From: a virus
DNA: 64,000 nucleotides
IMG/VR virus record: IMGVR_UViG_3300010244_000001
Direction: 5' to 3' (one strand)
Shown here: piece after piece, positions 2,797 to 52,779 of the stretch
Layout of the letters: every line of letters starts with the position of its first letter
Position numbering within the stretch: the stretch's first letter is position 1
Notes under the pieces: model-generated
Seen by the model: the letters and a program-made list of their open reading frames with translations, nothing else
What the model was told of the DNA's origin: nothing
The model's database searches: none
Made by a program: the position numbers and the translations under genes

Positions 2797-3018
2797 AGTT
2801 TCATAGAGACAGGTTAATACTTTTTAGGGAATGATTACCCTATCGATTACTTCTTTATAGAATAGTTGGTGGGGTACCATTCCAAGATAATTATTCCATG
2901 TTAGATTCGTTCTTTAAAATCAACTTCCTTTCTTTTTACTGAACGGATGGGATGGGTAGGTGATGGAAAAGCCTACTCATTCCCTAAAGGGTACTAACTT
3001 CAAATTAATTTTTTTTTT
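2797..3018 (+). ncRNA. candidate ORF-less early transcript (about 220 nt)
   Basis: consensus promoter but no SD or ORF over 14 codons before the next promoter; 12-bp long-range pairing TTTAGGGAATGA(2823-2834)/TCATTCCCTAAA(2977-2988); competing local hairpin TAGGG/CCCTA 2825-2842; ends in T9 run 3010-3018. Confidence 0.4.
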
Positions 3019-3027
3019 GAAAAAGTG

Positions 3028-3056
3028 TTGACAAATATCCAATATAATGTTATACT
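3028..3056 (+). promoter_or_regulatory. sigma-A-type early promoter
   Basis: TTGACA(3028-3033)-N17-TGtTATACT(3048-3056). Confidence 0.8.
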
Positions 3057-3087
3057 GAAAGTACAATAAATAGAGGAGATGGTTTAC

Positions 3088-3378
3088 ATGAATATGAAAC
3101 TCGACTATTCCAAAAATGCTTCAGAACGATTTACTGAGGAGAAACTGAATCATTACATGCAAGAGGTTCAGGAACTGATTGATATGGGATGGGATTATGA
3201 AGACGAATTAGAGCCTTTATCGGAGGTATGGATGGAAGACCCTGATATGATAGGAGAAGGGGAATATGCAGTTATACAAGGGGATTATATCATTGCTGAT
3301 GGGTTGACTGAGTTACAATCTGAAGTACTGTATGATGAGATTATGGCATACTTAGAAGGAAACTTAAATTCAAATTAA
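3088..3378 (+). CDS. hypothetical strongly acidic early protein, 96 aa
   Basis: SD GAGGAGATGGT contains track ATG 3079; ATG 3088 better spaced. Confidence 0.7.
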   Translation: MNMKLDYSKNASERFTEEKLNHYMQEVQELIDMGWDYEDELEPLSEVWMEDPDMIGEGEYAVIQGDYIIADGLTELQSEVLYDEIMAYLEGNLNSN

Positions 3379-41061: not shown

Positions 41062-41865
41062 CTGAATACTGTTGACAATGGAAATAGTAAAGTAGATATT
41101 TTTGTTCCCATAAACATAAACGACTCTATTAAGAAGAGTGAGGAAGACCCTTCCAGTAAATCTTGGTATGTTCGAGGTTACGCTACAACCCCTGATTTGG
41201 ATTTACAGGGTGATATCGTTGACCCTGATGGTCTAGACATTAGTCACTTTATCCGAGAAGGTTGGGTTAACTATGAACACCAACAGGGGGAAGAATATCG
41301 TATAGGTGCTCCTACAGACAAAACATATATCGATAAAAATATCGGTTTATATGTAGAAGCGAAGTTGAACAAGAGCAACCCTCATGCACAATCGGTTTGG
41401 AACTTGGCTAATAACATTGCTAAATCTGGTATTGACAGAAAACTAGGATTCTCCATTGAAGGTATGGCTAAGGAACGAGACAAAACAGACCCTAGGATTA
41501 TCAGAAAAGCATCCATAACGAACATAGCTCTTACAACGAGCCCAGCTAATCCGAATGCAACGTGGGAAACGTTTATGAAGAGTTTCTTAACAGGACATGG
41601 TACTACTCCTGAAACACAAACAGATGCAGCTGCACTTCGAACGGAATCATTTGCTCAGAACTTATATAATCTATCTTTTGCTTATAAAAACCTTGGGGAA
41701 CCTCAAGAGTTTGATAAAGTATGGAGAGAGGTTGGTGGATATCTAGATTCAATGGATAGGTATACTCCAGAAAGTGCAGTAATGTTCCTACAATTATTTA
41801 AAGGGTACTCCAGAAGTGATGCTGTTGCTAAATTAGATAAGATGATTAGTCAAGAAAATAAATAA
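41062..41865 (+). CDS. prohead maturation protease (HK97/S78-like); start uncertain, possibly CTG 41062
   Basis: frame open from 41056; N-terminal ...WYVRGYATTPDLDLQGDIVDPDG typical of prohead proteases lies upstream of track start 41197; SD AAGGGAGTGA at 41046-41055. Confidence 0.6.
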   Translation: MNTVDNGNSKVDIFVPININDSIKKSEEDPSSKSWYVRGYATTPDLDLQGDIVDPDGLDISHFIREGWVNYEHQQGEEYRIGAPTDKTYIDKNIGLYVEAKLNKSNPHAQSVWNLANNIAKSGIDRKLGFSIEGMAKERDKTDPRIIRKASITNIALTTSPANPNATWETFMKSFLTGHGTTPETQTDAAALRTESFAQNLYNLSFAYKNLGEPQEFDKVWREVGGYLDSMDRYTPESAVMFLQLFKGYSRSDAVAKLDKMISQENK

Positions 41866-48455: not shown

Positions 48456-50168
48456 ATGGCAGTATCTTACGGATACGACAGAACTCGTCCTAGAACAAGG
48501 GTAACACTTGATTCTAGTAACCTAGGTTCTGCAAATGTAGCAAGTGAAAAGCCTTTAATACTGCTTGGTTCTGCTACAGGTGGACAACCACATGCACCAC
48601 AAGAAGTTACAGACTTTTCTCAAGCAAGTAACATTTTCCGTGGTGGAGAACTACTTGATGCTATTGAAATGGCATGGAATCCCTCTCCGAATGTGGAAAA
48701 CAAAGCAGGACGTATTTTTGCAGTAAGAACAGATGAAGCGAAACAAGCAAATCTAACCGAAGGAGCTATTACTGTTGTTTCTAATCTGTATGGTTACGAT
48801 GCTAACAGTATTCAGGTTTCTTACGGGGATAACGAGTTAACTGGTTCTAAACGATTTAGTGTATTCTTTACGCAAGACCGTTATGAACGAGTGTATGATA
48901 ACATTGGTAATATCTTCTCTGTTACATATACTGGAGATCAACCTCAGGCAACTGTAACAATTAAAGAGGATACCAATACAAATCAAGCGACACAGCTTGT
49001 ATTGTCTGTAGGTGAAGGAACAGACAGCATGCAACCAGTTCGTACTTATGAGTTGGGTGAGGGTGTTTATAAGGACACGAATATTCTTGTAAACGACATT
49101 AACAACCTTCCAGACTTTGAAGCTAGTATGAACTTCCGTGGAGGTAGCAAGAACGTACCTACAAACACGTTAGACCCTATGGAAGCTACAGATATTACAG
49201 GTGGCGAAGTAACGGTTACAGCAGTTGCAGGTGACCTTGTACGTCAAACACGTAATGACCGTTATATTTCTATCGAAATCGACCCTACGAAAGAAATGCC
49301 AGACACAATCCCGTTGTCTAATCTTTCAGGTGCAGAAACTTCACCTTCCCCTGCTTCTTGGGCTTCGATTTTCGATACCGTATCTGATTTAGGTGCTTAT
49401 TACATTGTACCTTTAACAGATGATGAAGCTATCCATGGGGAACTTGTACAATTCCTACGTGATGAATCTCGAAATGGGAACCACTTGAGAGGAGTTGTAG
49501 GCGGTGGATTTGAATCATCTGTCAACGAGTTGGTGTCTCGTCAGACGAATTTAAGCAGTTCTAGAGTATCTCTGGTTGGGGATTCTGTTACTCGAAGAAT
49601 GTCTGATGGACGAGTATATAATGCTCCTGCATACATGTATGCAGCTGCTCTTGCAGGTATAGCGAGTGGACTACCAATTGGAGAACCAATTACTTATAAA
49701 CACACATCTATTGAAGCAATAGATAGGAAATTCTCAGGTTCTCAGTTAGACCAGCTAGACGATTCTGGTGTAATTATGACTGAGTTTGTACGTACACGTA
49801 ATAACTCGTACTACCGTATTGTAAGTGACCCTACAACTTACAACGCTAGTTCTGAACCTGTACAGAATACAATGAGTTTGGGTGAAGTTTCCGACTTCCT
49901 TACAACAGATATTCGTACAATGCTGGATGAAAACTTTATTGGTTCTCGTGTCCAAAGTACATCAGCATCTATCCTTAAAAACGCTGTAGAATCTCTCCTA
50001 GACCAACAGAAAAATGTTGGTGGGTTGATTGTAGACTACAGTCCAGAGGATGTACAAGTTGTAATTAATGGAGATACAGCACGAATTAATATTACTGTAC
50101 AACCTGCACAAGGATTGAGTTATATCAACGTTCATATCAACTATGAAGATAATGAACTTGTTGGATAA
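48456..50168 (+). CDS. tail sheath protein (size and position), 570 aa
   Basis: large gene directly before the tube gene. Confidence 0.65.
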   Translation: MAVSYGYDRTRPRTRVTLDSSNLGSANVASEKPLILLGSATGGQPHAPQEVTDFSQASNIFRGGELLDAIEMAWNPSPNVENKAGRIFAVRTDEAKQANLTEGAITVVSNLYGYDANSIQVSYGDNELTGSKRFSVFFTQDRYERVYDNIGNIFSVTYTGDQPQATVTIKEDTNTNQATQLVLSVGEGTDSMQPVRTYELGEGVYKDTNILVNDINNLPDFEASMNFRGGSKNVPTNTLDPMEATDITGGEVTVTAVAGDLVRQTRNDRYISIEIDPTKEMPDTIPLSNLSGAETSPSPASWASIFDTVSDLGAYYIVPLTDDEAIHGELVQFLRDESRNGNHLRGVVGGGFESSVNELVSRQTNLSSSRVSLVGDSVTRRMSDGRVYNAPAYMYAAALAGIASGLPIGEPITYKHTSIEAIDRKFSGSQLDQLDDSGVIMTEFVRTRNNSYYRIVSDPTTYNASSEPVQNTMSLGEVSDFLTTDIRTMLDENFIGSRVQSTSASILKNAVESLLDQQKNVGGLIVDYSPEDVQVVINGDTARINITVQPAQGLSYINVHINYEDNELVG

Positions 50169-50228
50169 TAGTCGGGGAGATACACTCCCCTACTACTTTA
50201 CAAACTTAATAGACAGGAGTGAATACAT

Positions 50229-51559
50229 GTGGCTAGTGTAACGAATCAAACAGTACAGTCCGCTAATACGGTGTACTTTATGATTAAAAACGTACCAATT
50301 GCCAGAGCACAGTCCATCTCCTCAGAACGTAGTTTCGGTACTACTGGGGTATACCAAATCGGTTCTATCATGCCTCAAGAACATGTGTACTTACGTTATG
50401 AGGGTATAGTTTCGGTTGAGAGATTCCGGATGAAACGTGAGAACTTGGCTTCATTAGGGTGAAAGTCCTAGACAACTCGCCCCCGTAGGTTGAAAGACCT
50501 ACAGGACAAGAGGGTAAACTGCTGGAAGCCCCTAAAGCTCTGTAAACTACAACGTAACTGGAAACGGTAAACGTGAATGTGACCGAAAGGTAGAAAGAAT
50601 TACAGAGATGGCATAAGCTAAAACATAATGCTACGTGCTACAGAATGGGAAATCAGCATCCACTTTCCTTTAAAATGGAAAAGGTTCAACGACTAAAATC
50701 CTCTACCATAAAGGTAATTATATAGTCTAAACCCGAACAAATAAGTGGAAACACTGGGTACAAATTGTCGCAGCTCTAGGAGAAGAAGTTTTACAGATGG
50801 ATATTATGGATATTGTTCTTTTTGACAACTACACACAAGAGGTCGTAATAGCATATCGTGGGTTAGTGTAAGTATACTGGGCTCACGTAAAACAGATGAA
50901 ATTGACGGGAACATCCTTACAGCCTTTTCTACCAACTGTACGTAGTAATACAGTACAGGGCTAAACTAACTATTTAGGTAGGGTAAAAAAGAAAAGGATT
51001 GGATAATCCGCAGGGAAGTCTCCTATAAGGAGAAACCTTCAACGACTGTAATATCTGCATTTACGAATGAAGGTACAGTCTAATCCCTTTAAGTATCAGG
51101 AAACTGAGGGTATGAAATATAATGGCAGTATAGACACATACAGTGAATCTGTGAATGTGGGAGAAATTTCCTCAGAGTTAATAGCTGGCTCTGATTAAAC
51201 AGTGTTAATTGACGGGAACTTCCTAAAGCTCTACACACCAACTATACGTAGAAATACAGTATAGGGCTGAACTAACTATTCAGGTAAGGTAAAAGAGGTA
51301 GAGATGGAACAATGGAAAATCCGCATCCAAGTCTCTCAAGGAGAGAAAGGTTCAACGACTATCCCAACGGTGATATAAAGTCACAACAGGAGTAGGGCTT
51401 ACATAAGTAAGTAGGTGAGAACCCTTTAAATCGAAATACACTGCATAGATGATATAGTCTAATCCGACTGAGTAATCAGTATGAAAATATCTCGAAAGAG
51501 ACGGTATAAAATTCGCAGCCCGATTTTATTTTCTCACATCCGCCAATGTCAGAGCGTAA
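50229..51559 (+). CDS. tail tube-like gene in four exons: join(50229..50455,50757..50864,51111..51179,51484..51559), 159 aa (hand model, boundaries within a few nt)
   Basis: SD AGGAGTGA, GTG 50229; each proposed exon is open in frame, total 480 nt; every 5' junction follows TT at codon position 2; every intron ends in G. Confidence 0.55.
50456..50756 (+). ncRNA. group I intron 1 (about 301 nt, no ORF)
   Basis: core GGTTCAACGACTAAAA(50683-50698) pairing with ATATAGTCT(50721-50729), P7-like; P2-like hairpin GTAGGT/ACCTAC. Confidence 0.6.
50865..51110 (+). ncRNA. group I intron 2 (about 246 nt, no ORF)
   Basis: CCTTCAACGACTGTA...TACAGTCTAA, with covarying P7 GACTGTA/TACAGTC. Confidence 0.55.
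51180..51483 (+). ncRNA. group I intron 3 (about 304 nt, no ORF), paralogue of intron 2
   Basis: GGTTCAACGACTATCC...GATATAGTCTAA; 5' half aligns with intron 2 (AATTGACGGGAAC..TCCT.A.AGC..CCAACT.TACGTAG.AATACAGTA.AGGGCT.AACTAACTATT.AGGTA.GGTAAAA). Confidence 0.55.
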
Positions 51560-51572
51560 TCGACATAGTAAA

Positions 51573-51603
51573 AGGAGTCCTTTAAAAGGCTCCTTTTTTT
51601 TTG
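51573..51603 (+). terminator. rho-independent terminator after the tube gene
   Basis: AGGAGTCC/AGGCTCCT plus T9. Confidence 0.75.
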
Positions 51604-51632
51604 TTGACTTATTGTCATACCTATGTTATAGT
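51604..51632 (+). promoter_or_regulatory. sigma-A-type promoter
   Basis: TTGACT(51604-51609)-N17-TGtTATAGT(51624-51632). Confidence 0.7.
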
Positions 51633-51663: not shown

Positions 51664-52779
51664 ATGACTAAACGGTTAACGTATGAGGAAGTAAAGGATT
51701 TTATAGAATCGGAAGGTTTTACACTATTAAGTGACGAATATACTAGAGGTAAAGAAAAGTTAACGATTAGATGTAAAAAGGGTCACGAGGAGCCTATCAT
51801 TTTTAATAATTTTAAAACAAGAAGACGTTGCCCTAAATGTGCCATTGAAGAACGGAATGAAAAGAAGAGGATAAAGCCTGATAAAGTTAAAGAATTGGTA
51901 GAGTCTGAAGGGCATGAACTTTTAGAAATTACTGAAGGTTATAAGGGTGAACATAAGAGATTGTTAGTTAGTTGTCCGAACAAAGACCACGAACCCTACC
52001 CAGTATCGTACCAAAATTTTAATAAAGGTAAAAGATGTCCCGAGTGTAAAGCAGATAAGAATAGAATACCTTTCAAAGAGGTTAAGGATACTATAGAGAG
52101 TGAAGGGTTTAAGTTATTGAGCAAAAAGTATAAATCAAGGAAACATACAATAAATGTTGAATGCCCTCAAGGTCATATATACCCAACAACTTATGATTTG
52201 TTTTTATCTGGAAAACGGTGTGGTAAATGTAACATGAGTAGAGGGGAAAATTTACTTTACTTTATTTTAAAGAATATTTTACCCGAAAACAATTTTTATT
52301 ACCAGTACCCTGTAACTATCGACAATAATAATTATCGGTACGATTTCTGTGTTGACTCTGATTTTAGACTTTTTATTGAGTTCGATGGTACACAGCACTA
52401 CAAGTCTGTTTCAGAATTTGGTGGCAAAGAAGGTTTTTATCAGTGTGTGGCTAGTGACAAAGTAAAGAACGATTTTGTAGAGAACAATATTGATTCTCTA
52501 CTTTTAAGGGTTCCTTATTTTTACAGCATAGAAAATGTGTATTACTCAGTTGTCCAATATCTGAAAGAAAATGACGTGCTAGTTACAGAAATTGAAGACT
52601 TATCAAAGTTGAACAATGCGTTATATGTAAATACTAGACAAGAAGATATAGCAAGTTACTACCTTACGAACTCGATTTCTGATACATCTAAAAAGTTTAA
52701 TGTACATAAAGCAACTGTGTATAAATATTTTAAGAAGGTATATGGTACAAGTAAATCTAAATATAAGAAAGAAATTTAA
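51664..52779 (+). CDS. free-standing nuclease-like protein: 3 zinc-ribbon repeats, PD-(D/E)XK (Vsr/DUF559-like) core and C-terminal HTH, 371 aa
   Basis: SD GGAGGTG, ATG 51664; three roughly 55-aa repeats (EEVKDFIESEGFTLLS...CxxGH...CPKC); YRYDFCV...FIEFDGTQHY. Confidence 0.55.
   Translation: MTKRLTYEEVKDFIESEGFTLLSDEYTRGKEKLTIRCKKGHEEPIIFNNFKTRRRCPKCAIEERNEKKRIKPDKVKELVESEGHELLEITEGYKGEHKRLLVSCPNKDHEPYPVSYQNFNKGKRCPECKADKNRIPFKEVKDTIESEGFKLLSKKYKSRKHTINVECPQGHIYPTTYDLFLSGKRCGKCNMSRGENLLYFILKNILPENNFYYQYPVTIDNNNYRYDFCVDSDFRLFIEFDGTQHYKSVSEFGGKEGFYQCVASDKVKNDFVENNIDSLLLRVPYFYSIENVYYSVVQYLKENDVLVTEIEDLSKLNNALYVNTRQEDIASYYLTNSISDTSKKFNVHKATVYKYFKKVYGTSKSKYKKEI

Follow-up and report, generated by a model that had tools for sequence, protein, structure and literature searches.

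Group I introns that hold no open reading frame (ORF) have been described in a phage tail-tube gene before. Gene orf142 of Staphylococcus phage Twort, which encodes the tail tube protein (PMC11878797), carries three such introns, each about 250-340 nt long, of which two are close paralogues on either side of an exon of only 23 nt (PMC10136302), and the gene is followed by ORF018, a phrog_559-related nuclease gene with its own promoter. Introns of the Bastillevirinae were surveyed by Weglewska et al. (NAR 2025, PMC11878797), who reported them only in the genes for DNA polymerase, large terminase, thymidylate synthase and ribonucleotide reductase, asked why only nucleotide and DNA metabolism had been invaded, and described phrog_559 as an endonuclease family encoded inside terminase introns. 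A group I intron with an in-frame stop codon near its 5' end lies in the tail tube gene of a Bacillus prophage, and such a stop codon is usual in Bacillus group I introns (PMC2504315). ORF-less introns that adjoin a free-standing nuclease gene are mobilized by collaborative homing in cyanophage S-PM2 (psbA with F-CphI), T3/T7-like phages and the ICP1 terminase (PMC3984707, PMC6083498, PMC10448857). Here we analysed a 64,000-nt stretch of viral DNA (IMG/VR record IMGVR_UViG_3300010244_000001; hereafter the window), in which the tail-tube gene of a Bastillevirinae-like (Herelleviridae) phage is very probably interrupted by three ORF-less group I introns and so divided into four exons, a reading to which we assign a probability of roughly 0.88. 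A gene for a putative homing endonuclease follows the last exon.

The locus is of an already known kind: multiple group I introns in a Herelleviridae tail-tube gene, with an adjacent free-standing homing-type nuclease gene. Twort, which the initial annotation of the window had cited as the precedent, is indeed the closest case. The host gene is the same, Twort residues 1-115 being colinear with the window product (tblastn; 63% identity); there are again three ORF-less introns, two of them paralogous and placed around a short exon (54 nt in the window), and a phrog_559-related nuclease gene with a promoter of its own again follows. The insertion sites differ, however. Twort introns lie at 115/116 (phase 0), codon 129 (phase 2) and codon 137 (phase 1), as inferred from the Twort locus (L004) in agreement with the published 23-nt exon between introns 2 and 3 (PMC10136302), whereas the window introns lie in codons 78, 110 and 128, all in phase 1. 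No two sites coincide, and the closest pair is 4 nt apart, so that the host gene is the same and the insertions are independent. Twort introns also score higher in Rfam (64-101 bits, compared with 33-44 bits in the window), window intron 3 lacks the P8 helix, and the two nucleases are only 24% identical. Twort ORF018 (L004 1655-2968) is labelled 'intron encoded nuclease'; because it lies past the orf142 stop codon and terminator, it is free-standing, a layout like that of the window.

The Bastillevirinae introns of the 2025 survey belong to the same phage lineage and the same intron family, and window introns 2 and 3 match the SIOphi DNA-polymerase intron as well as unannotated or endonuclease-annotated regions of SBSphiJ-type phages. 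The window differs from the surveyed cases in that the host gene is structural, the introns are ORF-less and the nuclease gene is free-standing, although the nuclease is of the same phrog_559 family. A structural late gene can thus be an intron hot spot too, which extends the list of host genes given for Bastillevirinae (PMC11878797). The Bacillus prophage case, likened here by description, shares the group I intron in a tail tube gene and the early in-frame stop codon, and differs in having a single intron in a temperate prophage. With collaborative homing the window shares ORF-less introns in an essential gene, an adjacent free-standing nuclease gene and co-occurrence of the two across genomes. 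It differs in being known from genes alone, in combining three introns with one nuclease, and in the nuclease type (zinc ribbons and a probable PD-(D/E)xK core).

All window features reported below lie on the + strand. The gene begins directly after the tail sheath gene (48456..50168, 570 aa), an ORF with megablast matches under features named tail sheath protein and tail tube protein in Bacillus Herelleviridae. A Shine-Dalgarno sequence, AGGAG, was read at 50215..50219, 9 nt before the GTG start. As the initial annotation had noted, the tube-like ORF stops after 77 codons (50229-50462); the gene caller gives only this 77-aa stub, and the source record's call for exon 1 carries PF26461. Exon boundaries were set against the tube protein of Bacillus phage P59 (QIW88681), which is 141 aa long and encoded without introns, and which aligned to the window by tblastn as four colinear blocks. 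Exon 1 (50229..50460, 232 nt) comprises codons 1-77 and the first base (T) of codon 78, ends in UUAGGGU and is 95% identical to P59 residues 1-77, its junction being derived from homologues. Exon 2 (50768..50863, 96 nt) runs from the last two bases of codon 78 to the first base of codon 110 and is 90% identical to P59 residues 79-109. Exon 3 (51125..51178, 54 nt) extends from the last two bases of codon 110 to the first base of codon 128; 16 of its 17 residues are identical to P59 residues 111-127 (SIDTYSESTNVGEISSE), within a longer tblastn high-scoring segment pair. Exon 4 (51516..51559, 44 nt), aligned by tblastn with P59 residues 128-141, completes codon 128 with its final two bases and continues through codons 129-141 to the TAA stop. 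Skipping of exon 2 or of exon 3 would leave the reading frame intact, as in Twort.

The resulting join(50229..50460, 50768..50863, 51125..51178, 51516..51559) is 426 nt long and encodes 141 aa plus a stop codon, a length equal to that of P59. With a slash marking each splice site, the junctions read GGGT/...G/TC, GGGT/...G/GC and GAGT/...G/CA; all are in phase 1, and the junction codons T/TC (Phe78), T/GC (Cys110) and T/CA (Ser128) specify residues identical in P59. The four exons are intact and in frame, contain no stop codon or frameshift, and are 86-100% identical to functional homologues. The unspliced reading frame, by comparison, stops at TGA, TAA and TAA 0, 2 and 6 codons into introns 1, 2 and 3, respectively. 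The spliced 141-aa product matched the phi812 tail tube protein (PDB 8q01_A) with E=8.8e-51, colinearly over residues 1-138. A longer 159-aa join proposed in the initial annotation, in which all four exons are included, had phrog_985 as a match (E=1.1e-57); no Pfam family was found for this 159-aa product. Full-length colinear homology (phrog_985; Phi812_tail_tube) and the position directly after the sheath gene agree in identifying the gene as a tail-tube gene, as first annotated.

One other junction was considered for intron 2, GGGTT/.../CAGT, which would give Phe110 and also fits the rules that a 5' splice site follows U and an intron ends in G. It was rejected because Cys110 is present in all five homologues examined (P59, Moonbeam, phi812, Twort and KSAP7) and because relatives with a single intron give T/GY. 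The motif G[AG]GT.{0,3}CAG has exactly three occurrences within the spliced coding sequence (CDS; positions 232, 328 and 382), one at each junction, and is absent from intron-less P59. We treat it as descriptive only, because it was defined after the sites had been seen; constraints from P1/P10, or an insertion preference common to the sites, may lie behind it.

The intervening sequences carry the hallmarks of group I cores. TTCAACGACT occurs exactly three times in the window (50685, 51038 and 51351), compared with 0.13 expected, and none of 100 shuffles reached three. Every copy has a downstream (A/C)AGTCTAA partner: AGTCTAA lies within 20-50 nt after two of the three copies (expected count 0.00), and for the third copy the partner, ATAGTCTAA, is ~90 nt downstream. 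The core consensus UUCAACGACU...AUAGUCUAA was accordingly found three times, as the initial annotation had described. Scanning with Rfam model RF00028 in E-value mode gave three matches, each over the full model length (positions 1-253): 50416-50740 for intron 1 (32.8 bits; E=3.6e-6 local, 1.5e-4 whole-window), 50821-51110 for intron 2 (37.8 bits; E=1.1e-7 local, 4.6e-6 whole-window) and 51169-51482 for intron 3 (43.8 bits; E=1.9e-9 local, 7.4e-8 whole-window). Nothing else in the window matched.

Intron 1 (50461..50767, 307 nt), intron 2 (50864..51124, 261 nt) and intron 3 (51179..51515, 337 nt) each end in G (50767, 51124 and 51515) and contain no ORF, the longest ORF inside them being ≤43 aa. 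In intron 1, helices were placed as P3 50509-13/50700-04, P4 50520-25/50653-58, P7 50691-95/50723-27, P8 50704-07/50713-16 and P9 50731-34/50756-59. The corresponding helices of intron 2 are P3 50893-97/51053-57, P7 51044-49/51075-80, P8 51058-61/51066-69 and P9 51085-88/51107-10. For intron 3 they are P3 51200-05/51438-43, P7 51357-62/51454-59, P7.1 and P7.2 hairpins within 51370-51423, and P9 51464-66/51502-04, with no P8. P3, P4, P5, P5a-c, P6, P7 and P9 are complementary in each of the three introns, and P8 has 4 bp in introns 1 and 2.

At each 5' splice site the exon end pairs with an internal guide sequence (IGS) to form a P1 that terminates in a U·G pair: UUAGGGU with GUCCUAG (50465-50471) in intron 1, CGUGGGU with GCUCACG (50881-87) in intron 2 and UCAGAGU with GCUCUGA (51188-94) in intron 3. 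P10 has 6 bp in intron 2, between CAGUAU (51126-51131) and the guide AUACUG (50874-79), and 4 bp in intron 3, between CAGC and the guide GCUG (51184-87). Covariation was assessed in an alignment of the three window introns and four introns that occupy the same sites elsewhere, in other genomes, with the structure written from intron 3. Paired bases filled 89.6% of the cells, compared with 30-43% when partners were slid by 1-3 columns; this percentage is somewhat favoured, the structure being based on one of the aligned introns, but the double changes are not. Covariation extends over P1, P3, P4-P6, P7 and P9. Both sides had changed in 30 of 57 pairs, and none of 500 shuffles reached any of the five measures. 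In P7 of intron 2, the pair GACUGU with ACAGUC was read against GACUAU with AUAGUC, which bears out the covariation first reported there. The most telling covariation is that of P1, where four of seven pairs change on both sides, since it involves synonymous codons. Window UCAGAGU with GCUCUGA corresponds to AGUGAGU with GCUCACU in Moonbeam: the Ser127 codon is TCA in the window and AGT in Moonbeam, and the guide matches by a change from CUCUGA to CUCACU. Likewise, CGUGGGU with GCUCACG at site 2 of the window corresponds to CGUGGAU with GUUCACG in L008.

Introns 2 and 3 are paralogues, 75-82% identical over their cores, and share the guide core CUGG(G)CUC. Over P4-P6, intron 3 shares 84% identity with the DNA-polymerase intron of phage Mater, which is HNH-containing, and intron 1 shares ~76% identity with an intron in Staphylococcus Silviavirus phages, including the first KSAP7 tube intron.

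Loci used for comparison are designated by L numbers. Of 80 IMG/VR loci encoding the tube N-terminus, 64 had an uninterrupted gene (52 unique sequences), and many relatives carry tube-gene introns that are often unannotated. All three window sites are occupied elsewhere: site 1 (codon 78) in L023, L070 and L089; site 2 (codon 110) in L008, L009, L018, L088, L089, L072, L073 and Staphylococcus phage KSAP7; and site 3 (codon 128) in Moonbeam (L002/L019). The insertion phase was read from junction DNA for L023, L070, L008, L009, L018, Moonbeam, L088, L089 and KSAP7, and the site-2 placement in L072 and L073 is by tblastn residue coordinates only. Same-site introns in relatives exceeded the curated RF00028 gathering score of 50 bits, with values of 92.1, 91.6, 61.8, 61.4 and 56.3 bits; the first two are the site-1 introns of L023 and L089, respectively. 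Further sites are occupied at 70/71 (L072 and L073), 104/105 (L021 and L072) and 132/133 (L073), and altogether the tube gene has at least ten insertion sites among phage lineages that infect Bacillus and Staphylococcus (70/71, 78, 104/105, 110, 115/116, 128, 129, 132/133, 134/135 and 137). The same site is held by different intron lineages in different genomes. Multiple introns were seen in L072 (3001-4352; 70/71, 104/105 and 110), L073 (3001-4400; 70/71, 110 and 132/133) and L089 (1-900; 78 and 110). L088 has a 352-nt insertion (3012-3363) at site 2, beside a nuclease of the window clade, that is clear by exon homology and gave no Rfam match at E≤1e-3; because it escapes Rfam, covariance-model screens under-count such introns.

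We infer splicing itself from the exon colinearity, the core helices with their covariation and the same-site occupancy in other genomes. The sheath-tube late transcript would extend to an intrinsic-terminator-like hairpin with a T run (51570..51597), found by terminator scan 10 nt past the tube stop codon, where a terminator had been noted initially. Each intron would fold into P1, a P3-P7 pseudoknot, P4-P6 with a P5abc-type three-way extension, and P9. Exogenous guanosine would attack after the U of the U·G wobble at the end of P1, and the freed 5' exon would then attack after the terminal G of the intron, with P10 aligning the exons in introns 2 and 3. Three such reactions would restore the 426-nt ORF for the 141-aa tube protein.

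A second gene (51664..52779), encoding a putative free-standing homing endonuclease of 371 aa, starts 105 nt past the tube stop codon and has a ribosome-binding site, GGAGG, at 51652-56. It is preceded by a promoter-like element at 51604..51632 (TTGACT-17-TATAGT with an extended -10 TG; a consensus match only, at 10/12 positions). The ORF matched phrog_559 with E=2.7e-55 and also phrog_9084, 'homing endonuclease'. In Pfam it matched CapR (E=1.7e-9; three CapR-type zinc ribbons) and, weakly, DUF559 (E=0.038). Residues C37, C56, C59, C125, C128, C186, C189, D227, E239, G242, D265 and K268 are invariant in 30 homologues. The predicted architecture is zinc ribbons, a probable PD-(D/E)xK core and a C-terminal helix-turn-helix. 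In an AF2 model (predicted local distance difference test score, pLDDT, 90.2), the best, weak Foldseek matches in the PDB were PD-(D/E)xK-type nucleases, including R2 proteins and Nt.BspD6I.

The arrangement of a free-standing putative endonuclease gene adjoining a gene with ORF-less introns is that of collaborative homing, and the distribution of the two elements points the same way. Of the non-redundant loci, 6 of 7 with introns but only 2 of 52 without have a homologue of the nuclease gene immediately after the tube gene (Fisher p=4e-6). Wherever a nuclease of the window clade (48-54% identity) was found, a site-2 intron accompanied it (the window itself, L008/L009, L018, L088 and L089); in L089 both site 1 and site 2 carry introns. 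The 3' end of the gene is accompanied by a second clade, seen with site 3 in Moonbeam, with 132/133 in L073 and with a duplicated 3' end in Mater and L069, and the nuclease of L023 (site 1) stands apart from the other clades. This co-occurrence agrees with the collaborative homing known from S-PM2, T3-like phages and ICP1, by analogy with which the introns may be maintained and spread at the DNA level; we consider the chances of this about even. When two phages infect one cell, the nuclease (51664-52779) would cut tube alleles that lack introns, at codon 110 or close to it, and repair would copy the nuclease gene and, by co-conversion, the adjacent introns. Introns 1 and 3 would have remained from previous invasions, in which other lineages of nuclease had taken part.

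Mater (L017 3380-4480) and L069 (3370-4700) are the two intron-less exceptions. In both, the nuclease cassette follows the tube gene and is itself followed by a duplicated tube 3' remnant (residues about 126/131-141) and a second terminator. It looks as if the cassette brought its own copy of the gene end.

Several observations weigh against the homing layer. Classic homing targets are expected in the most conserved DNA. Among the 52 intron-less alleles, a location of the intron sites in the most conserved DNA was not supported (percentiles 0.22-0.94). Foldseek gave no match at E≤1e-3 for the nuclease fold, and a PDB sequence search was empty. No nuclease of this kind follows the tube gene of L072, which carries three introns. 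L088 and L089 came to light in the search with the nuclease and so are not independent evidence for the association between intron and nuclease. One nuclease alone cannot explain three sites.

Some of these observations would suit a different account, in which the introns are real and the nuclease is unrelated to them, either an independent selfish gene or one with another target, so that the introns are static and vertically inherited or were placed by P1/P10-guided reverse splicing. The intron-rich L072 without the nuclease, the ordinary conservation of the intron sites and the different intron lineages at one site are all compatible with this. So are the G[AG]GU...CAG context shared by the junctions and absent from P59 (a motif defined post hoc) and the common guide core of the paralogous introns 2 and 3. 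However, the downstream nuclease is strongly concentrated at intron-bearing loci, nuclease clades track intron sites, and the cassette of Mater and L069, with its duplicated tube 3' remnant, is what recombinational invasion at the tube gene would be expected to leave. We regard an unrelated nuclease as somewhat unlikely.

If collaborative homing does operate here, a wider picture may be tentatively drawn, to which we give rather less than even credence. The 141-codon tube gene of Herelleviridae would be a recurrent battleground of collaborative homing, with each site paired with its own downstream lineage of zinc-ribbon/PD-(D/E)xK nuclease and with the intron (or, in Mater and L069, the swapped 3' end) as the immunity determinant. 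The window allele would be a layered record of successive invasions. The alleles observed form a series from site 2 only, through sites 1 and 2 (L089), to sites 1, 2 and 3 (window). The tube protein is the only marker with a tree in conflict with Herelleviridae taxonomy (PMC7409376), a disagreement that the battleground, if real, would explain. Alleles with 0, 1, 2 and 3 introns and site-matched free-standing nucleases in any case offer a natural system for cooperation between ORF-less introns and nucleases.

Intron 3 raises a separate question. P8 is normally part of the conserved group I core. Only CAUAG (51444-51448) lies between P3' and J8/7 of intron 3, and no helix is possible there, whereas at this position a hairpin with a stem of 5-10 bp is present in its relatives (L018, Moonbeam and the SIOphi polymerase intron). 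A group I core without P8 would be unusual, and the activity of intron 3 is in question; it is still classed as group I because every other core element is present. This missing helix is one of several points that tell against three functional introns. All three RF00028 scores are below the gathering score, so a default-threshold Rfam scan reports nothing; the scan that the initial annotation had proposed gives matches in E-value mode only. No P10 was detected in intron 1, whose proposed P1 loop is only GAAA. Minimum free energy (MFE) z-scores were modest (-3.9, -1.4 and -2.4 for introns 1, 2 and 3), MFE folding being unable to represent the pseudoknot. The window lies within contig Ga0212156_100008 (132 kb) of Joint Genome Institute (JGI) metagenome 3300020217, a single metagenome assembly, and no exact match to the sequences of intron 3 and intron 2 was found in metagenome and viral collections, so that the P8-less state rests on one assembly.

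These points could be taken to mean that the gene is decaying: at least one intron, most likely intron 3, would no longer splice, and the genome would be a defective variant or a chimeric assembly from which no full-length tube protein could be made. The lack of P8, the sub-threshold scores and the lack of a second copy of a single assembly agree with this. We nevertheless consider decay improbable. The four exons remain intact, in frame and close to functional homologues; complementarity of P1 and P10 is preserved in intron 3 and covaries with the exon; a phage with a contractile tail cannot do without its tube protein; and the assembled contig is near full genome length for the family. In addition, 4 of 8 validated Bastillevirinae introns were spliced only in vivo, according to the survey (PMC11878797), and weak-looking cores can therefore still function. 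Because its exons are intact, P1 and P10 are maintained and the gene is essential, intron 3 is argued to splice. The case also bears on whether P8 is dispensable in a group I ribozyme.

The splice model of the initial annotation, join(50229..50455, 50757..50864, 51111..51179, 51484..51559), is in frame, ends each intron in G after a 5' site that follows U, and yields a 159-aa product that matches tube proteins along its whole length, but it can be dismissed as highly improbable: tblastn covers the 159 residues with only 423 nt (141 codons) of the intron-less homologues, leaving 18 residues without a counterpart in every one of them; the P59 alignment blocks end and start elsewhere than at the phase-2 junctions TT/G, TT/T and TT/A; the residues F78, C110 and S128 of P59 are reproduced by the corrected phase-1 junctions only; at the corrected sites P1 has its U·G pairs, P10 can pair, and P1 covaries in comparison with Moonbeam and L008; and relatives with a single intron define these same positions. 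Alignment to intron-less tube proteins, which had been suggested as a check, thus separated the two models, the 159-aa join not being colinear and the corrected 141-aa join being so. The interpretation first offered, three ORF-less group I introns in the gene, now agrees with the RF00028 matches, the verified helices and the covariation, and is right in kind and wrong in coordinates.

Within the window, no tRNAs, no paralogues of the nuclease and no further group I matches were found, and the phage collection searched contained no close relative. Gene callers report only a stub for this essential tube gene, and default Rfam thresholds miss such reduced, IA-type introns; homology-guided exon joining recovers the 141-aa protein. 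The same error is present in deposited genomes. Moonbeam (KM236246.1), of a genus that the survey covered (PMC11878797), has an unannotated group I intron of 44.2 bits in its tube gene at window site 3 (L002 1342-1659, about 41515-41832). The deposited CDS, CPT_Moonbeam64, runs into the intron and is hence truncated, and the intron is missing from the list of the 2025 Bastillevirinae survey. The tube gene of Silviavirus KSAP7 (LC492751.1), orf26, is also annotated as a stub and contains two unannotated introns by exon homology (L092 about 1455-1756 and about 1831-2140). Neither KSAP7 tube intron gave an Rfam match at E≤1e-3; one lies in codon 110 (T/GT, the site and phase of window intron 2) and the other at 134/135.

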